From the NCBI GenBank assembly GCA_910580185.1, contig CAJTWC010000003.1:34304-98303 (forward strand): a DNA stretch of 64,000 bases, read 5' to 3'. The stretch comes from an uncultured Bacilli bacterium (lineage in GTDB: Bacteria > Bacillota_I > Bacilli_A > RF39 > UBA660). Shown piece by piece: positions 2,205 through 62,178 of the stretch. The notes under the pieces were generated by a model. That model was not told the origin of the DNA, searched no databases, and was given only the letters and a program-made list of their open reading frames with translations. Each line of letters starts with the position of its first letter. Within the stretch, counting starts at the first letter, position 1. The position numbers and the translations under genes are program-made.

Positions 2205-3915
2205 AAAAGAGAACATAAAGAAATTACTTACGTTTGGAGAAAATAAAAAAGCACTTACTTTTTGGTACATAGTAAGACTTTTACCAAGTATTTTAGTTTT
2301 TACTGGACCATTGTTAACTTCATTAATTCTTGATACGTATTTTCCAGACAATAATTATAAATACGTCTACTACTGTTCATTTATTTATATTGTTTTAACC
2401 ATTTTAAGAACTATGCAAATATTTTTCTATAACAACAAAAGAAATAAGATAATTTCAAAAGAGGAAAACACCATAAAGAAAAAAATGTATGAAAACGTAA
2501 TTAAATCAAAGGTATCATTAACGGATAGTTACCCAGTAGGTGAATTAATCGCACTTAACACTAGTGAATCTAAAAGTGCATCACTTCTTTTTGCATGGTC
2601 ATACATGAGAATTTACCCAATTGCTTATAAGGAAGTATTTTATACAATAATCGTAATGCTGTTTTTAGATTATAAACTTGCGATAATATCGACAGTAGTA
2701 TTCTTCTTAAGTTATTTTATGCTTAAACCACTTTATAAGAAAAACTATAAAGTAATAGAAAAATTACAAAAAATAAGATTAGAATTATCCTCTAAAACTA
2801 ATGAATTTATTAATAGTTACTCAACTAATAAATCACTTAGAATTGAAGAAAGTAATTTAAGTGAAATTGATGAGCTGCTTAAGAAAACATCAGATGAAGT
2901 ATTAAAATATAACAAAGTAATATACATTCATAAATACCTACTTAGCTTTATAAGCTTTATAAGCACCATTTTGATAGTTTACGTAGGCGGTGTAAACATT
3001 CTATCAGGAGTATCTTCTCTTGCTTTAATAATATTATTTAGAAACTATATAGCAAGTTTAGATTCGGCGATGAATATTATCGTAGAGTTTAAAAACGAAG
3101 CTAATAACAATTATAATGCTTATATGAAAATATATAATTTATGCTTAAATAAAAAAGAAGATAAAAAGGCTGGATTATTACTTAAAAAGGTAGATAGTAT
3201 AAAATTTAAGCATGTTAAGATGAGTTATGATGGTGTAAATGACATATTAAAAGATATTAATTTAGATATAACAAAACCAATGAAAATAGCCTTAGTTGGA
3301 AAAAGTGGTTGTGGTAAAAGTACGTTAGTTAACTTAATACCAAGGTTTTATGATATAACCGGTGGTTCTATTTTAATAAATGATACGGATTATAAAGAAT
3401 ATAGTTTAGAGACTTTAAGAAACAATGTTGGATATGTCTTTCAAGAACCAGTAATATTTCATATGAGTATTATGGATAATATAAAATATGGTCAAAATAG
3501 AAAAGTTACTAATAAAGAGGTAATAGAAGTTTGTAAAAGAATCGGCTTACACGATAAAATCACTTCGTTAGAAAATGGATATAATACTAAAATAGACATT
3601 TATAGTGATAAAATATCTTACGGTGAAAAACAGCTTTTAAATTTTGCTAGAGCGATATTAAAAAACGCTGATATTTTAATATTAGATGAAGTAACTTCAA
3701 ACCTTGATTTAGAATTTGAACAAAAAGTTATGAAAGCAACTAAAGAAGTTCTTAAAAATAAGTTTTCCTTTATCATTGCACACAGACTTAAAACCATTAA
3801 AGAAGCTGATTTAATTGTTTATATAGAAAATGGTAAGATAAAAGAAATGGGAACACATGATGAACTTATTAAAATGAATGGAAAATATAAGACATTATAT
3901 AACGATAAAAAATAA
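2197..3915 (+). CDS. ABC transporter, fused permease/ATP-binding subunit (second half of the heterodimer)
   Basis: Walker A GKSGCGKST, signature ISYGEKQLL, Walker B ILILDEVTSNLD; ATG at 2197 overlaps the upstream stop (ATGAATAA), suggesting translational coupling; the ORF track starts at a GTG at 2188. Confidence 0.85.
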   Translation: MNKKENIKKLLTFGENKKALTFWYIVRLLPSILVFTGPLLTSLILDTYFPDNNYKYVYYCSFIYIVLTILRTMQIFFYNNKRNKIISKEENTIKKKMYENVIKSKVSLTDSYPVGELIALNTSESKSASLLFAWSYMRIYPIAYKEVFYTIIVMLFLDYKLAIISTVVFFLSYFMLKPLYKKNYKVIEKLQKIRLELSSKTNEFINSYSTNKSLRIEESNLSEIDELLKKTSDEVLKYNKVIYIHKYLLSFISFISTILIVYVGGVNILSGVSSLALIILFRNYIASLDSAMNIIVEFKNEANNNYNAYMKIYNLCLNKKEDKKAGLLLKKVDSIKFKHVKMSYDGVNDILKDINLDITKPMKIALVGKSGCGKSTLVNLIPRFYDITGGSILINDTDYKEYSLETLRNNVGYVFQEPVIFHMSIMDNIKYGQNRKVTNKEVIEVCKRIGLHDKITSLENGYNTKIDIYSDKISYGEKQLLNFARAILKNADILILDEVTSNLDLEFEQKVMKATKEVLKNKFSFIIAHRLKTIKEADLIVYIENGKIKEMGTHDELIKMNGKYKTLYNDKK

Positions 3916-22639: not shown

Positions 22640-23700
22640 TGAAGAGTGTTAATTATAAATATTTAAACATACTCTTAATTTTAGGAATAGCTTACTTGCT
22701 ATTTTTAATGAAAGATGTATGGCTTGGGGTTGTAACTAAAATATTTAATATATCTTTTCCTTTTATAATAGCATTTGGTATAGCATATGTCTTTTATCCG
22801 TTTTTAAAGTTTTTAATAAAAAAAGGGATTCCTAAATGGTTATCTGTTTTAATAATAATTTTAAGCGTATTATTAATTGTTGGATTAACTACTTATTTTG
22901 TATTTCCTTTATTTATTGATCAATTAATAAATCTTTTATCTAGTATTTCTAAAGTAACCAGTGATTTAGGTTTAAAATATGGGATTGATATGAATACCAT
23001 AAATAGTTATGTAATCAATTTATCATCAAAATTATTAGAGTCAGTTGGAACATTTATATCAAGCGGAAGTTTAATTAAAGTTTTATCAGGTTGGGTTGAT
23101 GTAATAACTAAATTTATAATAATATTTATTGTTAGTATATATTTCTTATCTGATATGCCTAAAATAAGATTGAAAATAAAAGACTTTATGAAGAAAAAAG
23201 ACAAAAAGAAATATGAACTTATTAAGAATATAGATAATGAAATATATAGCTATCTTAAAGGCCTTGGAATATTTATGATAATTCAATTTTTTGAATATAC
23301 GTTATTGTTCTTAATAATAGGACATCCAAACTTCTTACTTATCGGCATCTTAGCATGTATCACAACCGTTATTCCTTATTTCGGAGGTATCATAACAAAC
23401 TTAATTGCCCTTGTAATAGCATCAGTTATATCTTCTAAGTTGTTTATATTAACACTTATAATCACACTGGTATTTCCAAATATTGATGGTTATGTTATAT
23501 CACCTAAAATATACGGTAAAACAAATGAATTGCCAGCTATTCTAACCGTGTTTGTGGTGTTTGCAGGTGGAGCCTTATTTGGCTTTACCGGAATAGTAAT
23601 TGCAGTACCACTTACCATTATATTAATGGCTATTATAAAAGCATATAAGCCTGAAATAGAAAAAGGTTTTAAAAAGATTAAAAATAAAAATAAATTATAA
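22639..23700 (+). CDS. AI-2E family transporter (PerM/UPF0118)
   Basis: 353 aa with 8 TM helices and typical AI-2E topology; AAGGAGG RBS. Confidence 0.6.
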   Translation: MKSVNYKYLNILLILGIAYLLFLMKDVWLGVVTKIFNISFPFIIAFGIAYVFYPFLKFLIKKGIPKWLSVLIIILSVLLIVGLTTYFVFPLFIDQLINLLSSISKVTSDLGLKYGIDMNTINSYVINLSSKLLESVGTFISSGSLIKVLSGWVDVITKFIIIFIVSIYFLSDMPKIRLKIKDFMKKKDKKKYELIKNIDNEIYSYLKGLGIFMIIQFFEYTLLFLIIGHPNFLLIGILACITTVIPYFGGIITNLIALVIASVISSKLFILTLIITLVFPNIDGYVISPKIYGKTNELPAILTVFVVFAGGALFGFTGIVIAVPLTIILMAIIKAYKPEIEKGFKKIKNKNKL

Positions 23701-23729
23701 AAAAGTGGTAAAAAAATATCACTTTTTTC
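23700..23729 (+). terminator. intrinsic terminator after the AI-2E gene
   Basis: AAAAGTG-loop-CACTTTTTT. Confidence 0.4.
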
Positions 23730-23834
23730 ATATTTTTAGGGGATTTTTAAAATTTTTGACTAACAATTAATTAGGAGGCAATAGAAACTAGCTTTGTTTT
23801 CCATCTTACTAGAATAGGAAGGTGGGTGATATTT

Positions 23835-23924
23835 ATGAGGTTTAGATTTGAAATAAAATTTAGTCCAAAATTAATTATCATATTATTACTTGTAATAGCC
23901 CTAGTGTTAATTACTAGTATATAA
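23835..23924 (+). CDS. 29-aa hydrophobic peptide (MRFRFEIKFSPKLIIILLLVIALVLITSI), candidate type I toxin-like small membrane protein
   Basis: Strong SD AAGGTGG 9 nt upstream; single predicted TM helix; stop codon abuts a 16-bp bidirectional terminator hairpin; missing from the ORF track because of its size. Confidence 0.4.
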   Translation: MRFRFEIKFSPKLIIILLLVIALVLITSI

Positions 23925-24005
23925 GAAAAACAGAGTTAGTGACAAACTAGCTCTGTTTTTCAATAAACAAAACATATGGAAAACAACTAGTAATGTTGCT
24001 TCCTT
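23918..24005 (-). ncRNA. candidate convergent antisense small RNA overlapping the terminator of the 29-aa ORF
   Basis: Minus-strand promoter with -35 TTGAAT (plus 24036-24041), 17-nt spacer and -10 TATAAT (plus 24013-24018); transcription runs into the bidirectional terminator, giving an RNA of about 85 nt. Confidence 0.3.
23925..23961. terminator. bidirectional intrinsic terminator (16-bp stem, GACAA loop)
   Basis: GAAAAACAGAGTTAGT / ACTAGCTCTGTTTTTC pair perfectly apart from one G-U pair. Confidence 0.6.
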
Positions 24006-24098
24006 CATTTATATTATATATTAAATTTTGTAGTTATTCAATTATTTTATCTTTCTTTTTTTTAAATAATGATATATAATTAAATCATAGGAGGATAT

Positions 24099-24653
24099 AT
24101 GAAAATAGCATTAATAATTATTTTAGTAATCGTAGTATTAATAGTAATGTATTTAATATCTACGTATAATTCACTTGTTGGATTAAGAAATAAGGTAAAG
24201 GATCAATGGTCACAAATCGATGTTGTGTTAAAAAACAGAAACGATTTAATACCAAATCTAGTTGAAACTGTTAAAGGTTATGCAAAACATGAAAAAGAAA
24301 CTTTAGATGCTGTTATAAACGCAAGAAGTAAAGCTGCTAACGCAACTTCTGTTGAAGAAGAAATGAAAGCTGCTGGTGAAGTTACACAAGCTTTAGGTCG
24401 TTTATTTGCAATCGCTGAAAGTTATCCAGATTTAAAAGCTAATACTAACTTTTTAGATTTACAAAGTAAATTAAATGAAGTTGAAGAAAAAATACGTTTT
24501 GCAAGACAGTTTTATAATGATACAGTTTTAAATTATAAAAACAAACTTGAAATGTTTCCATCTAATATAGTAGCTAATATGTTTGGCTTTAAACCAGAAG
24601 CTTTCTTTGAAGCTACTGAAGAAGAAAGAAAAAACGTACAAGTTAAATTTTAG
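24099..24653 (+). CDS. lemA: LemA family protein
   Basis: N-terminal TM, then the YNSLVGLRNKVKDQWSQIDVVLKNRNDLIPNLV signature typical of LemA; 184 aa. Confidence 0.85.
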   Translation: MKIALIIILVIVVLIVMYLISTYNSLVGLRNKVKDQWSQIDVVLKNRNDLIPNLVETVKGYAKHEKETLDAVINARSKAANATSVEEEMKAAGEVTQALGRLFAIAESYPDLKANTNFLDLQSKLNEVEEKIRFARQFYNDTVLNYKNKLEMFPSNIVANMFGFKPEAFFEATEEERKNVQVKF

Positions 24654-24702: not shown

Positions 24703-26427
24703 ATGAAAAAAATATTTAAATTCATATCAATTGCTATACTATTATTTATTTTTCCGCTTGTTGTAAAAGCAAATAGTATATCTTCCATTGATATGGATAT
24801 ATACGTAGATGAAAGTGGCACTGCACACGTAACAGAAACTTGGAGTGCTAATTTAAATCAAGGTACCGAAGGATATAAACCATATTATAATCTTGGTAAC
24901 GCAAAAATATCAAATTTTAAAGTTAGTGAAAATGGTAAAACATATACATATAATGACTATTGGAACACTAATGATAGTTTTGATAAAAAAGCATATAAAA
25001 ATGGTATTAATTATATTTCGGATGGTTTAGAGCTGTGCTGGGGTATAAGTAGTTACGGATACCATAATTATGTTTTAACTTATGATATAGAAGGATTTGT
25101 AGCAACCCTTGATGATGCTGATATGATTTATTGGACGCTTATTCCATACGAATTGTCATCGAAACCAGATGACGTACATATTAAAATACACACTGATAAT
25201 TATTTAAGTGATAGTGTGCCAGTTTGGGGATATGGAAATTATGGTGGTACTGCATACGTATATGATGGTTATATAGAAATGAATTCTGAAGGCACATTAG
25301 AATCAAATGAGTACATGACCATATTAGTTAAATTTGATAAAGGAACGTTTAATACATCTAATACATTAAGTGAAGATTTTGATTACTATCATGATATGGC
25401 AGATGTTGGTGCAACAAAATATAAGGATGATAAAAAATCAAGCTTTTTAGATATTATAATGTCCATCTTTGCAATCGTTTTTCATTTTTTTATTTGGGTT
25501 GTTGTTGTAATAACTATCTCTAAAAGTATGAAGAATGCTGCTAATAGAGTTGGCACTAAGACCTTTAATTTTGGTCCACAAGGGAAAGTATTACCAAAAG
25601 ATATACCTAACTATCGTGATATACCATTTAATAAAGACATATTTAGAACTTTTTGGATAGCAGAAGGCTATAAATTAAATAAAAACAAAACAGATTTTTT
25701 AGGAGCAATTTTACTTAAATGGTTAAAAGAACAAAAGATATCTATAAAAAAAGTAGAAGCTGGTTTTATAAAGAAAAAGGAAGAAACCGCAATTGATTTA
25801 ACCAAGGAAATAACCTTTGATGAAGTATTAGAACAAGAATTATTTGATATGATGAAAGAAGCAAGTCGTGATGGTATCCTTGAATCTAAAGAATTTGAAA
25901 ACTGGTGTGATGATAATTATAGTGAAATTTTAACCTGGTTTGATAAGGTAATAGATAAGGAAACTGATGAATTAATTCTTGAAGGAAAAATAACCGTAAC
26001 AGAAAAAACTAACCTTAAAGTATTTAAGTCCAAGGAATACGTAGTTGATCCATCGATGAAAGAGGAAGCTATTAAATTAAAAGGATTAAAGAACTTTTTA
26101 GAAGAGTTCTCAAGAATAGATGATAAAGAAGCGATTGAAGTAAATATGTGGGAATATTATTTAATATATGCACAAATACTTGGAATTGCAGATAAGGTTG
26201 CTAAACAATTTAAGAAATTATATCCTGAAATTATCGATAATCCAGAACTTGGTTATACATATACTGACATTATGTTTATACATATGGTAAGTCATAGTGG
26301 AATGCGCACAGCAACTACATCACAACAAAGAGCACAAAGCTATTCATCTGGCGGCGGCGGATTCTCTTCTGGAGGAGGTGGAGGCGGCTCCTTCGGTGGT
26401 GGTGGAGGCGGAGGAGGCTTTAGATAG
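24703..26427 (+). CDS. DUF2207-domain membrane protein (LemA partner) with a Gly-rich C-terminal tail
   Basis: Signal peptide, central TM, and C-terminal SSGGGGFSSGGGGGGSFGGGGGGGGFR typical of DUF2207; encoded directly downstream of lemA. Confidence 0.7.
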   Translation: MKKIFKFISIAILLFIFPLVVKANSISSIDMDIYVDESGTAHVTETWSANLNQGTEGYKPYYNLGNAKISNFKVSENGKTYTYNDYWNTNDSFDKKAYKNGINYISDGLELCWGISSYGYHNYVLTYDIEGFVATLDDADMIYWTLIPYELSSKPDDVHIKIHTDNYLSDSVPVWGYGNYGGTAYVYDGYIEMNSEGTLESNEYMTILVKFDKGTFNTSNTLSEDFDYYHDMADVGATKYKDDKKSSFLDIIMSIFAIVFHFFIWVVVVITISKSMKNAANRVGTKTFNFGPQGKVLPKDIPNYRDIPFNKDIFRTFWIAEGYKLNKNKTDFLGAILLKWLKEQKISIKKVEAGFIKKKEETAIDLTKEITFDEVLEQELFDMMKEASRDGILESKEFENWCDDNYSEILTWFDKVIDKETDELILEGKITVTEKTNLKVFKSKEYVVDPSMKEEAIKLKGLKNFLEEFSRIDDKEAIEVNMWEYYLIYAQILGIADKVAKQFKKLYPEIIDNPELGYTYTDIMFIHMVSHSGMRTATTSQQRAQSYSSGGGGFSSGGGGGGSFGGGGGGGGFR

Positions 26428-32224: not shown

Positions 32225-32230
32225 ATAAAT

Positions 32231-32409
32231 GCCTAAAGGTATCGGGCGCTAGCACATTTAACCCGCTAAGATTTAATAGGGAATCAGAATCAATAGTGGT
32301 GTTCATGCTTAAATTTATTTAAGAAGTCTAAAACTATTGTGGGATGCCCACCTGCGAGAATTGCAGGTTTATCTTGTTAGCAAACGACCCTTTGGGTTCT
32401 TTTTTTTTA
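32231..32409 (+). ncRNA. candidate stand-alone structured small RNA of about 180 nt, identity undetermined
   Basis: The locally GC-richer segment lies between a strong promoter and an intrinsic terminator (ACGACCC-UUU-GGGUUCU followed by U9). It contains adjacent hairpins GUGGG-AUGC-CCCAC and CCUGC-GAGAAUU-GCAGG. There is no long ORF, and the downstream gene has its own TTGACG/TAACAT promoter. Confidence 0.35.
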
Positions 32410-49505: not shown

Positions 49506-50068
49506 TGGAAACAATTGATAGCATAAAAACAAGGTGGAGTAACTATAAATATAAAAATAAAGATATTCCAAAAGATGTTATAGAAGACATATTAAATTGT
49601 GGTAGGCTTGCTCCTTCTGCTAAGAATAGACAACCTTGGTACTTTGTAGTTACAACAGGTAATACAAAGAATGAAATTACAAACATAATGCTTAGTGAAG
49701 TGGGAAGAATCACTGATAAGGATGAAATAAAAAGAATAGGGCATCCTTGTAGTCTTTTATCAACCGCAAGGACAATAAAAAAAGTTCCTGTATTAATTTT
49801 AATATTTAGACCAAATGATAAAGCTTGGGCTAAAGGAGATAGATTATCACTTGGTGCGTGTATAGAAAACATGTGCTTAAAAGCAACTGAGTTAGGTATT
49901 GGTTCTTTATGGATATTAGATACCGTATACGTTGAAAAAGAAATACAAAAAGTTACTAACCATGAAGACATGGAATTAGTGTGTGGTTTATTACTAGGAT
50001 ATCCAGATCAAAAACCCAGAAAAAAGATTAGAAAAAAATTAAAAGATATGATGGAGTGGCAAATATAA
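49505..50068 (+). CDS. nitroreductase family protein
   Basis: RLAPSAKNRQPWYFVV motif; 187 aa. Confidence 0.75.
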   Translation: METIDSIKTRWSNYKYKNKDIPKDVIEDILNCGRLAPSAKNRQPWYFVVTTGNTKNEITNIMLSEVGRITDKDEIKRIGHPCSLLSTARTIKKVPVLILIFRPNDKAWAKGDRLSLGACIENMCLKATELGIGSLWILDTVYVEKEIQKVTNHEDMELVCGLLLGYPDQKPRKKIRKKLKDMMEWQI

Positions 50069-50565
50069 TGTACGAAATAAAAGAAGTAAAACATAGTAAT
50101 AAAGACTTTATAAATTTATGCAAAAAAATAGATGAGTATCAAAACGATTTAATTCCATTAAGAAAAAATTGGGGTTTTTCTTCTCTAGATGAAATAGATG
50201 TTTTAGATAAAATATTATTAATGTATGATAATGAAAAAGCAGTAGCATCAGCTTCTATTAGAAAAGTTGATAATAATACTGCTGAATTATGCTCTATATA
50301 TACAGAAGAAGAATATAGAAATAAAGGAATATGCACTTTACTTATAAATGAGTTAATAAAGTATTTAGCCTCCAATAACTACAAGAAACTTATATTATAT
50401 ACTCTAAAAGGAAGTATACCTGCTATTTCTTTGTATAATAAGTTTGGTTTTGTAAAAATAAATATAGAAGAAAAGAAAGAAGATATGGATCACATGTCTT
50501 ATTTAAATAATGATACGTTAGAAGAAATAGATAAGTATACAGTTTATATGGAAAAGATATTATAG
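50056..50565 (+). CDS. GNAT family N-acetyltransferase
   Basis: Acetyl-CoA binding region RNKGICTLLINELIKY; 169 aa. Confidence 0.7.
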   Translation: MANIMYEIKEVKHSNKDFINLCKKIDEYQNDLIPLRKNWGFSSLDEIDVLDKILLMYDNEKAVASASIRKVDNNTAELCSIYTEEEYRNKGICTLLINELIKYLASNNYKKLILYTLKGSIPAISLYNKFGFVKINIEEKKEDMDHMSYLNNDTLEEIDKYTVYMEKIL

Positions 50566-50608
50566 TTAAAAATATAATGGTCTTTTTTATTTATAATATT
50601 AAAAAGCA

Positions 50609-50637
50609 TTGACAAAACAATAAGAATTTGTTAATAT
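50609..50637 (+). promoter_or_regulatory. near-consensus sigma70 promoter (-35 TTGACA, 17-nt spacer, -10 TAATAT)
   Basis: Read directly; lies upstream of the ORF at 50670. Confidence 0.5.
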
Positions 50638-50669
50638 AACGCCGTTAGGTTACTTAAGAGGGGGATACA

Positions 50670-51071
50670 ATGAAAATATTTAAAAACTTTGAAAATGATG
50701 AAACTAATAAATATATGATTAAAAATTACAATTTAAAAAATGTCAATAAAAAAAAGCTTGCATATTTAATTTTGGTTCCAGTGATTATTTGTGGTAGTAT
50801 TATTGGTACAGCTACCACCGTTAAAGCTTCGCAAATAGAGGATAATTATTATAATAAAAAAGAAACTAGTAGTATAATGTATGTTGATGAAAATACGAAC
50901 AAATTAGCATATCAAACAGATAAAAGTCATAAAGAAAATAATAATCTGCGTTTTATTGATTCTGAAGAGAATAGTGAATTATTAGATTATATTGCGCTTG
51001 GTGTAAGTTGTACAGCATTAGGATTATCAGTAGCCAATTTTGCAAACATACTAAGTAAAAGAAAAAGATAA
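50670..51071 (+). CDS. hypothetical secreted or membrane protein
   Basis: N-terminal TM or signal peptide and a C-terminal hydrophobic segment plus KRKR; AGAGGGGGA RBS. Confidence 0.4.
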   Translation: MKIFKNFENDETNKYMIKNYNLKNVNKKKLAYLILVPVIICGSIIGTATTVKASQIEDNYYNKKETSSIMYVDENTNKLAYQTDKSHKENNNLRFIDSEENSELLDYIALGVSCTALGLSVANFANILSKRKR

Positions 51072-51257
51072 ATAGCTAAACATTTTGGCTATTTTTATTA
51101 TAAAATAATTAAAAAAATGATTTAAGAAAAGATTATGAATAACAATATTATAGATAAAGTTATTAGAAAAAATCATATTAAATTAATAAAAGATAAATTC
51201 AATCAATAAGTCCCCTATTATTTATTAAAATTTAAGTAGGGGAGTTAAGTATAAAAA

Positions 51258-51296
51258 CATAGATGCAACACATATCAATTGCATCTATGTTTTTAT
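51258..51296 (+). terminator. strong intrinsic terminator inside a 670-bp noncoding region
   Basis: 10-bp stem ATAGATGCAA / TTGCATCTAT followed by GTTTTTATT. Confidence 0.55.
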
Positions 51297-51740
51297 TATT
51301 AATTTTCAATATATTGTTTTTATAATAAAACTAGCATGCATTTTAACGCATTTTTTATTTAAAAGATGCATAGTTGTTCATTCGGGTTTGTCTAGTGAAC
51401 TACTATTTTTCGTGATACTTCCCCTACTATGTAATTAAAACATGATAAAAAGGGGAGTAGGAGACTAATACAGCCACTTTTTTTAATAAGAGTGATGATT
51501 TATATATAATTTTTTCAAAACCATTTAAGATAGGTTAAAAATAATTAATAATAATTTTAAAAGATTTATATTTGAGTTTAGTTGCTTATACAGATAACAC
51601 ATATAACACAATCACGAAAGTGGATTTAATAGATTAGTAAATAAACATAATAAAAAGATAACTATAAAATAGCTATCTTAAATTCAAAATTAAAATGTTA
51701 ACATAATATGTATTATACGAACTAAAATATAGTAGTGTAC

Positions 51741-52508
51741 TTAAACATCGCGAGACTGTATTTCAGCTATCTTAGCTAATACTTCCGATGCATTTGTTTG
51801 ATTGATTTCTGTGTATCCTAACTCATGTAATGCTTGTATCTTAGCTGAATTTATTTCTTGAGTTCTAGAAAGTTTTTCTTCGTTCTTGTGTTCTATTTCT
51901 GCTACAAACTTCTTATGTTGTTCGGCAAGTTTTGTTTTTGATGCGCCACCATTACGGTATAAAGTCATTGCTGAATGCATAATACTTTCAAAAATAAATT
52001 GTTCTTCCTCATTAAATGTATATTCTTCTGGATCAACAAAGCCTAATAGTTTATCAATATATCCCATCATATATTTTAACTCTTTAACATTTTCTAATCC
52101 TTGGACAAAATTAAGTAAATATTTATATGTTAAATATGCGTCATTAGAATTTTCTATAAAACGTTCTTTTATTAAGAAAATAATGTCATTTAATAATTCT
52201 TGTTCTCTTGGCTTTAATTCTTTAAATTCTATTGATTCTGAATGAGTTACACTTATATTAGATGCGTCACCATTTAATACCATATCAACCTTATTTATAA
52301 ATTCAGCATCTACTTTTATATTATCTATATCAGTAGCCTCTTTAATATCCAATAAATTAAATAATTTCATTTTTTTATCTTTTGGCCATCTAGAAATATC
52401 ATTCATTTCTAAATAATTATAAATCATTTGGCGAGATACACCTAAATATTTTGCAAGTTTAACTTTAGAAATCCCTACCTCTTGTAAAATTTCGTTAAGT
52501 TTATCCAT
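51741..52508 (-). CDS. putative DNA-binding protein with N-terminal HTH
   Basis: N-terminus VGISKVKLAKYLGVSRQMIYNYL is a helix-turn-helix; GAGGAG RBS. Confidence 0.45.
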   Translation of the reverse strand: MDKLNEILQEVGISKVKLAKYLGVSRQMIYNYLEMNDISRWPKDKKMKLFNLLDIKEATDIDNIKVDAEFINKVDMVLNGDASNISVTHSESIEFKELKPREQELLNDIIFLIKERFIENSNDAYLTYKYLLNFVQGLENVKELKYMMGYIDKLLGFVDPEEYTFNEEEQFIFESIMHSAMTLYRNGGASKTKLAEQHKKFVAEIEHKNEEKLSRTQEINSAKIQALHELGYTEINQTNASEVLAKIAEIQSRDV

Positions 52509-52617
52509 AATTCTCTCTCCTCTACTCTATCTACTCTAACTATAATTTTACACTTTTTTACATTTTTGTCAACTTTTGTACAAAAAAATAATAGAATTAT
52601 AAATTCTATTATTGGTT

Positions 52618-53250
52618 TCATATTAAAAACGTAAATAATTTTAATAATACCGGTGTTATATAAGCATCAACTAATGATATAGTTATAATTAAAATCAATG
52701 ATATTATAAAAGCTAGAAAATATCTACCAATAAAAGTTTTGAAATCTAAACTTTTTTTAGTAAGTAAAGATTTTAAAAATTTAATAGATACATATACTGA
52801 GAAAAATGATAAAAATAAATAAATCAGTATAAATGCTACATGGCAAGGAAATATATATAATAATGAACCTAAAATACCTTTTAATGAATATTTATATATT
52901 ATAGTTCCTATTGTAAGACCAGTTGTAAAACCCTTAAAAAATAATATCAGAATAACCGCAAATATACCTATCATAGAAATTCCTAAAATAAAAATTATAG
53001 TAATTTGAATTATATTATTTATCAAAATACTTTCAAATGCACCTAGTCCAAATATACTTTTATCAAGAGTTTTAACACAAGTAAAAAATTCTCCTACTTC
53101 ATCTACTAATATTTTTTTATCAGCATTTCCAATAAAATTTATAAAGAGTGAGCCAAATATTAATCCTACCAAAAATATTATTATATTAAATATTATAATT
53201 TTCTTTTCTTTTTTTAATAGTTCGTTTAAATAGTTTATTAATTTCTTCAT
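52618..53250 (-). CDS. SpoIIM/DUF95-like polytopic membrane protein
   Basis: 210 aa, about 6 TM helices, N-terminal pattern resembling stage II sporulation protein M; AGGGAG RBS. Confidence 0.35.
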   Translation of the reverse strand: MKKLINYLNELLKKEKKIIIFNIIIFLVGLIFGSLFINFIGNADKKILVDEVGEFFTCVKTLDKSIFGLGAFESILINNIIQITIIFILGISMIGIFAVILILFFKGFTTGLTIGTIIYKYSLKGILGSLLYIFPCHVAFILIYLFLSFFSVYVSIKFLKSLLTKKSLDFKTFIGRYFLAFIISLILIITISLVDAYITPVLLKLFTFLI

Positions 53251-60377: not shown

Positions 60378-60380
60378 TAT

Positions 60381-60408
60381 TTACATAAATATAATATTTT
60401 TGTATAAT
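60381..60408 (+). promoter_or_regulatory. sigma70-like promoter (-35 TTACAT, 16-nt spacer, TG-TATAAT) driving a short plus-strand RNA
   Basis: Read directly. Confidence 0.45.
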
Positions 60409-60415
60409 TTAATTA

Positions 60416-60503
60416 GTGAGAGCACCTAACTTAAGGTTAGTAGCTTTCCTTAAATTTGTTTAGGGAAAAAGCGTAACTCCCCCCTGGGTATAGTTACGCT
60501 TTT
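60416..60503 (+). ncRNA. candidate ~88-nt small RNA convergent with the 26-aa peptide gene
   Basis: Starts at the left inverted repeat, contains the hairpin CUAAC-UUAAG-GUUAG, and ends at the bidirectional terminator at 60466-60504. Confidence 0.3.
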
Positions 60504-60504
60504 T
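60466..60504. terminator. bidirectional intrinsic terminator
   Basis: AAAAAGCGTAACT-loop-AGTTACGCTTTTT. Confidence 0.55.
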
Positions 60505-60507
60505 CTT

Positions 60508-60588
60508 TTATATTTTAAAAATTAGTATTGCTAATAATAAAATTAAAAGGATAATTATTACTCTTTGAAACTTAGTTTCACTTTTCAT
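60508..60588 (-). CDS. 26-aa hydrophobic peptide (MKSETKFQRVIIILLILLLAILIFKI), candidate type I toxin-like small membrane protein
   Basis: AGGTGGTG SD 6 nt upstream; single TM helix; stop codon abuts the bidirectional terminator; sequence-similar to the 29-aa peptide at 23835. Confidence 0.4.
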   Translation of the reverse strand: MKSETKFQRVIIILLILLLAILIFKI

Positions 60589-60752
60589 AAACATCACCAC
60601 CTTTCTATTCTTCATAAAAAGACGGAAAGCTAAACTAACCCACTATTAGGTGTTCTCATATTTATTATTAGATAAAACTTTTAAATATCCCCTAAAATTA
60701 AATAAAAAAATTAAAAAATACAAGAATTATTTAATATCTTGTACTTTTTTTA

Positions 60753-61583
60753 TTATCTATAATATTTATAACGTTCATTAAGAGGAACCATTTTTTTGAT
60801 TGATTCTATCTCATCTTTTAATATTAACTCGCTTTCTGGAACTAAAAACTCATTTAATCTATATTCTTTATACATTTTTTCATCATCACTATAAATCATT
60901 TTTGGTATTCTTACCACATTAAAATCATTCAAGAAATAATTATAAAAAGTTTCATATATTTTAAATTCAGATGTAGTTATAGTTTTAGGCAAACGTTCAA
61001 CCCTATGATAGCCTAAATATTGAACGTATATATCATTTAAATAATATAGCATTTGACGATATTTATAATCATCATAATATATATCTAAAGTGCGCTCATT
61101 ACTTTGATTTTTTAAATATAAGATATTATAGCTTTCTTTATCTAATAAATTTACATCTTTACCAAAACCTTTAGTAAAATATTTATTTTTATAGCAATTA
61201 TTAAAAAATGTCAATAAATTCTTTTTTAATAAGGTAATAGGGTATTCACCAAAACGACTTTCAAACCTAATTTCAGAATTAACTCTACTTATACATTCAA
61301 GAATATAATCTCTACTTGCATCAGTAATATATTCTTCATCACGCTTATTTCTTAGTATTAGTTGTTCTTTATCCATATTTATATCTATTTCATTGACATA
61401 GAAAATGTCTAAAAATAATTCGGTAACAGGATTAATATCATGCCCTCCAATTCCAAATGGACAAGAGTAATCAATAGGCCTTCCACTTGGATCTAAAAAA
61501 CCAATAAACTTTGCTGCAAAATTAAAATTATCTGGTGTAATTTCAGTATCGTTGATAACATTCTTATTAAATGATAATGTCAT
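60753..61583 (-). CDS. hypothetical protein
   Basis: ORF of 276 aa. Confidence 0.4.
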   Translation of the reverse strand: MTLSFNKNVINDTEITPDNFNFAAKFIGFLDPSGRPIDYSCPFGIGGHDINPVTELFLDIFYVNEIDINMDKEQLILRNKRDEEYITDASRDYILECISRVNSEIRFESRFGEYPITLLKKNLLTFFNNCYKNKYFTKGFGKDVNLLDKESYNILYLKNQSNERTLDIYYDDYKYRQMLYYLNDIYVQYLGYHRVERLPKTITTSEFKIYETFYNYFLNDFNVVRIPKMIYSDDEKMYKEYRLNEFLVPESELILKDEIESIKKMVPLNERYKYYR

Positions 61584-61605: not shown

Positions 61606-62178
61606 TTATACTCCCATTTTAGCTTTAATAAGTTTGGTTTTTCTTTTTCTACCCAATTCACCTACTGATATTTCGTAGTCTTTGTCGCCAAAAATATGTT
61701 CTTGCAATATTGTTTCCTCATAACCATTAGTAAGAGGAACAATAATCTCTTTAGTTTGTTTTAACTTTGGTATTTTTAAAGCACCATCACTATATACTAT
61801 TTTATGCTTAATATCATTTAGTTTAGATTCTTTTAACAATTCACCAGTAGTTCTAACTTCTAGATTATATAATCTATTTGCAAGTTCTTGCAACTCAGTA
61901 ACAGCCTCTTCTTCCCTTATTTTACTAAAGTTCTTTAAAACTTTATTAGTTATTAATGCACTGCCACCACAAATTCCAGCACACCCCAAAATCGTTAGTA
62001 TTATGCCAATTTTTTTATCTAATATAAAACCGGCTACGTAAGCTGCTAATAAGTTAAAATTAACAAACTTAAACACAGGTTCATTTAACATTGCTTTAAC
62101 TTCTGATTTATATAATTTCGCTCCGTTTTTAGACTGGCGTATTTTATCTAATAAGTCATAATTTATCTTTAGTTTCAT
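61606..62178 (-). CDS. hypothetical membrane-associated protein
   Basis: AAGGAG RBS; central hydrophobic segment with GxxxG repeats. Confidence 0.4.
   Translation of the reverse strand: MKLKINYDLLDKIRQSKNGAKLYKSEVKAMLNEPVFKFVNFNLLAAYVAGFILDKKIGIILTILGCAGICGGSALITNKVLKNFSKIREEEAVTELQELANRLYNLEVRTTGELLKESKLNDIKHKIVYSDGALKIPKLKQTKEIIVPLTNGYEETILQEHIFGDKDYEISVGELGRKRKTKLIKAKMGV

Follow-up and report, generated by a model that had tools for sequence, protein, structure and literature searches.

A candidate chromosomal type I toxin-antitoxin-like module of a previously undescribed family, present in two copies in an uncultured gut Bacilli bacterium

Genome annotations hardly ever include type I toxin-antitoxin loci, and most of those known come from cultured model bacteria. 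The stretch considered here – 64,000 nt of contig CAJTWC010000003.1 from an uncultured Bacilli bacterium (assembly GCA_910580185.1), referred to below as the window and numbered from its first nucleotide – contains a 398-nt spacer between an AI-2E transporter gene (stop at 23700) and lemA (ATG at 24099) in which a reading made from the sequence alone had proposed such a locus. It described a gene for a hydrophobic peptide, a convergent antisense small RNA (sRNA), a bidirectional terminator shared by the two, and a 5′ untranslated region (5′UTR) that folds back on this terminator, and called the ensemble 'Fst/Ldr-type'. Is this compact arrangement a toxin-antitoxin module, a harmless gene with an antisense regulator, a dispersed repeat, or an accident of AT-rich DNA? 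Conservation and covariation in a paralogue and several orthologues bear out the core of that description, and our answer, given with moderate confidence, is that a type I toxin-antitoxin-like module resides here on the chromosome and that its family had not been described before.

The unit in the AI-2E-lemA spacer (copy 1) is laid out largely as described. It lies downstream of the AI-2E gene's own terminator (23701-23728). The open reading frame (ORF), its Shine-Dalgarno (SD) sequence AAGGTGG (23819-23825, 9 nt before the ATG) and the minus-strand promoter (10/12 consensus matches) are all found where they had been placed, and an in-frame GTG occurs at 23826, upstream of the ATG. The terminator hairpin does have 16-nt arms (23925-23940 and 23946-23961; 94% complementary, 5-nt loop), but it abuts the TAA (23922-23924) with a gap of 0 nt and not the 1 nt reported. 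Only one of its pairs departs from Watson-Crick rules, reading G.U on the plus strand and C.A on the minus strand. The hairpin is preceded by an A tract and followed by a U tract, the U tail being longer in the sRNA direction. The repeat of the hairpin 3′ arm in the 5′UTR is likewise present (23785-23803 against 23944-23962, 17/19 identical). Three further elements had been overlooked: a longer inverted repeat (23774-23804/23976-24004), a hairpin that sequesters the SD (23801-23825), and a second copy of the unit at ~60380-60697. One motif is therefore found in four versions per module: in the leader (A), in the two hairpin arms (B′ and B) and downstream (C′).

A search for paralogues had been suggested, and blastn and tblastn of the copy 1 unit against the window recover this second whole unit (copy 2) on the minus strand, between a 276-aa gene and a convergent methyltransferase gene; orthologues are present in related genomes. 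The two copies share the motif TTTTAGGGGATwTTTAAAAkTTTT, the block GAATAGrAAGGTGG(G)TGATrTTTATGA, and an ATATAA followed immediately by the A-tract hairpin. The stem of copy 2 (GCGTAACT/AGTTACGC) differs from that of copy 1, and each copy carries a downstream complement of its own leader plus a convergent promoter. The features of both copies are collected in the table.

Table. Features of the two modules in the window, and the upstream motif in two relatives
Module	Feature	Position	Strand	Basis
Copy 1	Upstream G-rich motif TTTTAGGGGATTTTTAAAATTTTT	23735..23758	+	Core kept in all aligned modules
Copy 1	−10-like hexamer ATTAAT, predicted toxin-mRNA promoter	23766..23771	+	Suggested by alignment
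Copy 1	Leader segment A GGAGGCAATAGAAACTAGCTTTGTTTTCCAT	23774..23804	+	Duplex energies, covariation
Copy 1	SD-sequestering stem-loop	23801..23825	+	Folding; equivalents in copy 2 and L108
Copy 1	29-aa ORF MRFRFEIKFSPKLIIILLLVIALVLITSI, candidate toxin	23835..23924	+	Homologous ORFs, frame-keeping indel
Copy 1	Shared hairpin T1, bidirectional intrinsic terminator	23925..23961	both	Right after stop codon in all modules
Copy 1	Segment C′, complement of leader A, right arm of inverted repeat	23976..24004	+	Duplex energies, covariation
Copy 1	Predicted antisense sRNA, ~90 nt	23916..24006	−	Stem-loop + linker + terminator, z = −5.1
Copy 1	sRNA promoter TTGAAT-17-TATAAT	24013..24041	−	Invariant −10, fixed spacer
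Copy 2	Upstream motif TTTTAGGGGATATTTAAAAGTTTT	60674..60697	−	Copy 1/copy 2 alignment
Copy 2	Leader segment A CACCTAATAGTGGGTTAGTTTAGCTTTCC	60624..60652	−	Cognate duplex energies
Copy 2	SD-sequestering stem-loop CCGTCTTTTTATGAAGAATAGAAAGGTGG	60597..60625	−	Folding
Copy 2	26-aa ORF MKSETKFQRVIIILLILLLAILIFKI	60508..60588	−	Orthologue P0141 in L121/L122
Copy 2	Shared terminator hairpin GCGTAACT...AGTTACGC with A and U tracts	60465..60505	both	Alignment, folding
Copy 2	Segment C′, complement of leader A	60423..60451	−	Duplex energies, covariation
Copy 2	Predicted antisense sRNA, ~96 nt, stem-loop + linker + terminator	60415..60510	+	z = −5.7
Copy 2	sRNA promoter TTTACA-17-TATAAT, 11/12 matches	60380..60408	+	Promoter match
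L121	Upstream G-rich motif	2453-2475		Conserved before every module
L108	Upstream G-rich motif TTTTTAGAGGGATTTTTAC	~720-745	−	Conserved before every module

Relatives of the two copies were found by different routes. Copy 1 has orthologues in a sister lineage in which LemA is 95% identical (loci L110-L113). For copy 2, a profile search over 1.84 billion protein representatives returned a sole match, P0141, a 45-aa call containing MKKETKFLKVIIILLILLIALLIFKI; the contigs on which it lies (L121 and L122, from JGI) carry copy-2 orthologues, and L121 is syntenic with the copy 2 site (NusB, HAD, module, convergent methyltransferase, xseA). A metagenome scan with an SD-ATG pattern added a partial further member, L108, with peptide MKQERNFLRVIIIMLVIVVILLISKM; the scan's other match, L107, proved to be chance. 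In L108 the GC content goes from ~22% to ~47-50% (1-560 against 560-2172) exactly at the module terminator, at 1.7x coverage, and the contig is probably a chimeric assembly joined at the hairpin, the 3′ half of the module being missing. No further members emerged from nhmmer and a peptide-profile scan of small ORFs across all fetched loci.

The unit is also absent from sites where it might be sought. The nearest species representatives (L001 and L002) have the same gene order with AI-2E-lemA spacers of ~65-100 nt and no unit, and their lemA promoter is conserved despite its absence; it is missing too from L116-L119, where LemA is 89% identical. In a lineage with LemA 90% identical, the spacer is an unrelated 229-nt sequence (L114 1772-2000; L115 120-348), which contains GC-rich hairpins (e.g. 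CACGG...CCGTG) and two short ORFs of 38 and 24 aa, and has no Rfam match at E <= 1. Where the unit does occur it always sits just after the terminator of a co-oriented gene, and its neighbours are functionally unrelated (AI-2E/lemA, NusB-xseA, and a phosphodiesterase in L108). Such a multi-copy, patchy distribution, as judged from these loci, would be typical of type I loci.

What does the ORF encode? Type I loci call for a short mRNA specifying a hydrophobic peptide of 20-60 aa, and the two ORFs in the window specify 29 and 26 aa, each with an SD and one hydrophobic helix. The copy 1 peptide (MRFRFEIKFSPKLIIILLLVIALVLITSI) has a charged N-terminus and a single C-terminal hydrophobic helix, and across modules the 26-29 aa ORF retains its frame, its charged N-terminus, its hydrophobic C-terminus and the stop codon adjoining the hairpin. 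A 9-nt indel separates the copy-1 and copy-2 subfamilies and leaves the reading frame intact. The ORFs of L121 and L122 differ at three positions, all synonymous, and the replacements seen in other comparisons are conservative (L/I, R/K, V/A). The copy 2 and L121 peptides differ mostly by L/I and R/K, and copy-1 alleles by V24A, T27I or T27F, together with one synonymous change. Frame, length and the synonymous-only changes point to an ORF under coding constraint.

Individual copy-1 alleles are also of note. In L110 (1720 and 1728, corresponding to window positions 23821 and 23829), AAGGTGG has become AAAGTGG, and GAT has become GGT just upstream of the ATG; the former change gives a weaker SD and a weaker sequestering hairpin, and this may be an attenuated toxin allele. 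L084 and L089 have TTTT instead of TACT at 23912-23915 (Thr27Phe). A 33-aa minus-strand ORF (23907-24008) was dismissed; it begins before the point where the sRNA is predicted to start, and copy 2 has nothing equivalent.

The leader of the mRNA appears to be built to limit translation of this ORF. In copy 1 the anti-SD CCATCTT (23801-23807) pairs with the SD, and an SD-sequestering hairpin occurs in all three sequence types (copy 1, copy 2 and L108) with differing 5′ arms, at −9.8, −9.8 and −13.5 kcal/mol. The proposed fold-back of the leader onto the terminator arm is supported in both subfamilies. The copy 1 duplex of A with the hairpin 5′ arm (A:B′) reaches −16.5 kcal/mol against −6.6 ± 2.1 for shuffled sequences, none of 500 being equal, and no pairing in the region is stronger than the duplex of A with C′ (−32.3 kcal/mol against −8.7 ± 2.6; 0/500 equal). 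The corresponding copy 2 values are −18.0 (A:B′) and −29.5 kcal/mol (A:C′), whereas non-cognate combinations of the two copies reach only −7 to −13 kcal/mol.

The A:C′ helix comprises 22 pairs, is recovered by RNAalifold, and pairs in 131 of 131 cells of the alignment, with seven pairs changed on both sides; slid controls pair in 27-53% of cells. At four positions, in eleven cells altogether, the pair is G.U when read as mRNA and would be A.C on the opposite strand. Because these cells fit the mRNA sense only, they suggest that some toxin transcripts at least read through the hairpin and include C′. An mRNA structured against translation, as expected of a type I locus, is therefore indicated both by the SD hairpin in all three sequence types and by the covarying long-range helix.

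Less can be said with assurance about where this mRNA starts. The −10-like ATTAAT of copy 1 aligns with a perfect TATAAT in L121/L122, with TAAATA in copy 2 and with TATTAA in L108, and the toxin-mRNA promoter is predicted to be weaker than the sRNA promoter, with a start at ~23775-23779, at the left end of the inverted repeat. The upstream G-rich motif, whose core TTAGGGGAT is present in 6/6 modules of alignment A4 (TTAGAGGGAT in L108), sits 17-19 nt before the A/T-rich hexamer. It occupies the place of a −35 element yet is not sigma-70-like, and may be bound by a regulator or recognized by an alternative sigma factor.

The antisense side is more regular. At sequence level, a predicted antisense gene with its own promoter and terminator is present in 6/6 modules: every −10 reads TATAAT, the −35 takes one of three forms (TTGAAT, TTTACA, TTGTAT), and the spacer, for all its sequence divergence, keeps a length of 17 nt. 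No extended −10 (TGn) is present in the copy 2 promoter. In all modules the stop codon is followed immediately by the terminator hairpin, whose stem sequence differs from one subfamily to the other. In copy 1 the predicted sRNA would start at G24006 and end at the shared hairpin (~23916), and folding, one of the checks proposed at the outset, gives a 5′ stem-loop, a linker and the terminator. The bases of C′ double as the 5′ hairpin on the minus strand, and this hairpin includes two G.U pairs that exist in the minus sense only. All five distinct predicted sRNAs fold into a 5′ hairpin plus terminator, with z between −4.2 and −7.2. The predicted sRNA is perfectly complementary to the mRNA 3′ end, over ~45-50 nt when the transcript ends at the terminator and over ~90 nt when it continues past it, and overlaps at most the last two or three codons of the ORF.

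These features suggest the following scheme, which we put forward as a model. A weak or non-canonical promoter would yield a short mRNA for a 26-29 aa peptide with a positive N-terminus and one C-terminal transmembrane helix. This mRNA would be inert by default, with the 5′ stem-loop hiding the SD and leader A folding back on the terminator 5′ arm or, in read-through transcripts, on C′; the ORF would be enclosed either way. The near-consensus convergent promoter would provide an antisense sRNA of ~90 nt, whose pairing would result in duplex cleavage and mRNA decay or would lock the mRNA in its inert fold, by analogy with 3′-overlapping Gram-positive systems. The peptide, presumably toxic, would be produced only upon a drop in the sRNA. 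Since the sRNA is complementary to the mRNA 3′ end only and makes no significant contact with the SD region, duplex-triggered decay or stabilization of the inert fold, as in the Bacillus systems (PMC6562991), would be the likeliest mode of action, and direct occlusion of the ribosome-binding site, as in par (PMC7472228), the less likely.

Several observations weigh against this interpretation. With an mRNA that ends at the shared terminator, the complementarity is short and distant from the ribosome-binding site. The sRNA 5′ domain shows no significant contact with the SD/start region (−15.8 and −17.7 kcal/mol, against −14.2 ± 2.7 and −15.6 ± 3.0 for shuffles, of which 128/500 and 106/500 pair equally well), and whole-length RNAduplex scores are also no better than shuffles, so a par-like second contact is not supported. 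The assignment of the toxin-mRNA promoter is not confident, its −35 place being taken by the conserved G-rich motif. All seven double changes in the A:C′ helix fall on the one copy-1/copy-2 split and amount to a single evolutionary comparison; moreover, a DNA-level inverted repeat would yield equal A:C′ counts, and only the G.U asymmetry at four positions favours the mRNA sense. The near-identity of copy 1 between lineages, described below, could reflect recent transfer or gene conversion and not selection.

Known families also provide no match. At gathering thresholds Rfam finds only 6S RNA in the whole window and no antitoxin family; permissive Rfam scans of both copies give sub-threshold, terminator-driven matches only, the best to an antitoxin family being SR6_antitoxin at 21.4 bits against a gathering score of 55 (E = 0.24). 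No Pfam or NCBIfam toxin model matches the peptides at E <= 10, and a doubled-peptide protein query and exact look-ups of the 32-aa and 35-aa extended ORFs returned nothing.

The most serious alternative, which we consider unlikely but by no means negligible, is that the unit is a conserved gene for a small membrane protein – benign, for example a modulator or subunit of a membrane complex – with a cis-antisense sRNA that tunes its level. The coding constraint, the sRNA promoter and terminator and the mRNA structure would fit such a gene equally well, the peptide resembles no known toxin, and copy 2 occupies a single chromosomal site, surrounded by housekeeping genes, in lineages that have diverged to species level: its module is 84% identical to that of L121, and neighbouring protein-coding and housekeeping genes are 80-84% identical. 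Because its divergence matches that of its neighbours, copy 2 indicates long-term vertical retention under selection. Less easily accommodated are the presence of several copies in one genome, presence or absence at orthologous sites, and the functionally unrelated neighbours. Furthermore, a strong antisense promoter opposed to a weak sense promoter, SD sequestration and 5′-3′ fold-back are standard safeguards for toxic peptides (PMC7472228, PMC8594479, PMC6562991). Should the peptide be non-toxic, the locus would still hold a conserved, unannotated membrane micro-protein with a dedicated antisense regulator.

A more speculative possibility, to which we give a low probability, treats the unit as an RNA switch. 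A, B′, B and C′ covary as a set between subfamilies around the shared terminator, and leader A might pair co-transcriptionally with B′ as an antiterminator, deciding between a stop at the hairpin and read-through to C′ with its 5′-3′ lock. The sRNA 5′ domain, being a sense copy of the leader, would then be a competitor or mimic and not a plain antisense, and the unit a self-propagating, homogenizing multi-copy element, an idea prompted by the near-identity of copy 1 in lineages with flanking genes 15% apart and by the assembly breaks within it.

How many copies there are, and how they are maintained, bears on a further alternative. Between the window and L111, copy 1 has no differences in 175 nt (23730-23904) and four in the 272 nt of the whole module, while the flanks differ by 14-16% in the AI-2E gene (30-34% at third codon positions) and by 7.6% in lemA; strong constraint could explain this, as could recent spread or gene conversion, alone or in combination. 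In k=31 Logan contigs, sequences from many independent samples end at 23854, start at 23916 and break at 60602 (loci with breaks inside modules are L084-L090, L093-L095, L109 and L112-L113), and metagenome-assembled genomes run through. Sequencing runs that contain DNA of this species include SRR20792761 and ERR3199547. Because the k=31 contigs break at the same sites across samples, an exact repeat of ~120 nt (~23825-23945) is probably present elsewhere in the genome, and with it further near-identical copies. In the same neighbourhood, the DUF2207 gene (24703-26427) differs from the window by 14% in L110 and by 4% in L111, though the LemA protein is identical in both, a mosaic divergence that indicates frequent homologous recombination in the population.

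Multiple copies, assembly breaks inside the unit, its absence at orthologous sites in close relatives, the ~30-nt inverted repeat, the near-identity of copy 1 while its flanks differ by 15%, and its invariable place right after the terminator of a co-oriented gene might together suggest a repeated, possibly mobile intergenic element like a miniature inverted-repeat transposable element (MITE) or a repetitive extragenic palindromic (REP) sequence, in which the ORF and promoters are incidental. MITE- and REP-like elements, however, have terminal inverted repeats and no conserved genes, whereas here the repeat is internal, conservation extends ~40 nt further on both sides, taking in the sRNA promoter at one end and the upstream motif at the other, and both ORF and promoters are themselves conserved, the ORF with a frame, length and synonymous-only changes that indicate coding. 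The strand-specific G.U pattern is an RNA-level signature, and copy 2 is vertically inherited. No relatives were found in the viral, plasmid or phage collections searched: pattern scans of viral contigs gave only chance matches in unrelated coding DNA, and distant blastn against plasmids and phages gave nothing relevant. We regard this explanation as very unlikely, and mobility would in any case be compatible with toxin-antitoxin function.

An ordinary bidirectional terminator with a chance ORF and promoter-like match, or its variant, a lemA leader or attenuator, is scarcely credible: short hydrophobic ORFs are frequent in AT-rich DNA, and 2 kb here contain 17 promoter-like sites against 13.2 expected at 26% GC, so that the copy 1 promoter match alone is no better than chance, but the sRNA promoter carries weight because it is conserved in relatives, as is the whole unit including the ORF in paralogue and orthologues, a terminator belonging to the AI-2E gene lies upstream of the unit, lemA is served by a promoter of its own that is conserved in species lacking the unit, and the gene downstream of copy 2 is convergent, which makes a leader role impossible; both versions are contradicted by the comparative data.

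Some observations elsewhere in the window are recorded here. The 276-aa and 190-aa genes between a HAD hydrolase gene and copy 2 (60753-61583 and 61606-62178, both on the minus strand) have no Pfam domains, and the best relatives of the 276-aa protein are merely 47% identical. In L121 they are replaced by 36-aa and 130-aa calls, which defines a variable islet beside the module; at L120, the one inspected locus of a homologue of the 276-aa gene, no module was seen among the called genes. A 6S RNA (SsrS) gene lies at 32227-32402 on the plus strand (Rfam RF00013, 65 bits, E = 1.4e-10), the sole above-threshold Rfam family in the window. The GC skew flips from positive to negative near 52 kb (~50000-53000), where the predominant gene orientation changes from plus to minus, as would be expected if replication forks converged on a terminus within the window. 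Both candidate toxin ORFs point in the direction in which replication would proceed according to the skew.

If our interpretation as a type I module is correct, it would be a new family in relatives of Candidatus Aphodocola, uncultured gut Bacilli of very high AT content for which the resources searched describe no such locus. The presence of two copies in a single window, together with exact-protein look-ups of the neighbouring genes, provided enough comparative signal to annotate such loci, and the two compact peptide/sRNA pairs are available for testing. The unit would also combine features in an unusual way, joining the convergent 3′ antisense and shared terminator of Gram-positive systems to a covarying, hok/AapA-like 5′-3′ helix that spans the terminator.

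The closest layouts among described systems are those of par (Enterococcus faecalis pAD1) and SprA1/SprA1AS (Staphylococcus aureus). Both have convergent promoters and a shared terminator, with antisense overlap of almost only the terminator; a 5′ stem-loop sequesters the SD, and the mRNA 5′ end is held by intramolecular pairing (PMC7472228, PMC8594479). The unit has in common with them the convergent promoters, the shared bidirectional terminator, an overlap that excludes the ORF, and the SD stem-loop; here the mRNA 5′ end, from a start site that is itself predicted, would be sequestered by the long-range helix and not by a local one. In Fst peptides the hydrophobic helix, which carries a PXXXG motif, is N-terminal and the charged tail C-terminal; in par, RNA II is also complementary to the SD and start codon of the toxin mRNA, through the direct repeats DRa and DRb (PMC7472228). 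Here the peptide polarity is reversed and PXXXG is absent. The repeats flanking the terminator are inverted and not direct, so that the 5′ end of the sRNA reproduces the mRNA leader in the sense orientation, and no DRa/DRb-type contact was found. Together with the lack of any Pfam, NCBIfam or Rfam match, these differences leave the 'Fst/Ldr-type' label unsupported.

The txpA/RatA, bsrG/SR4, bsrE/SR5 and yonT/SR6 pairs of Bacillus subtilis likewise have a convergent antisense RNA of ~100 nt that pairs with the toxin mRNA 3′ end; the SD of the bsrG mRNA is partly sequestered, and decay is likely initiated by RNase III, with a possible allosteric effect on the SD (PMC6562991). They are Gram-positive, chromosomal and 3′-convergent, as is the unit. 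Their complementarity spans 100-140 bp and includes the 3′ part of the ORF (PMC6562991, PMC8594479), whereas here the overlap is shorter (~45-50 nt, or ~90 nt with read-through) and barely touches the ORF. The Bacillus toxins have N-terminal transmembrane helices and charged C-termini, the opposite order to that seen here; the peptide polarity of the unit is opposite to that of all the Gram-positive toxins compared.

In hok/Sok (plasmid R1) and aapA1/IsoA1 (Helicobacter pylori), long-distance 5′-3′ pairing of the mRNA encloses the ORF and renders the primary transcript inert (PMC8594479, PMC6733600). This pairing, represented here by the 22-bp covarying A:C′ helix, is all that the unit has in common with them. 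Their antisense RNA is encoded across from the 5′ portion of the mRNA and targets a 3′-processed form, and here the antisense gene lies at the 3′ end; the 3′ partner of the helix is here beyond the terminator hairpin, there is no sequence similarity, and their hosts are Gram-negative. The short Escherichia coli type I toxins Ibs, ShoB, TisB and ZorO (19-29 aa) resemble the peptides described here in size and in having a hydrophobic helix that begins after a few polar residues and extends nearly to the C-terminus. They show no detectable homology, and the genetic layouts differ: their antisense RNAs lie opposite the whole ORF or are divergent at the 5′ end. The unit is therefore best read, on the comparisons available, as standing outside Fst/Ldr and as a new family within the type I toxin-antitoxin kind.

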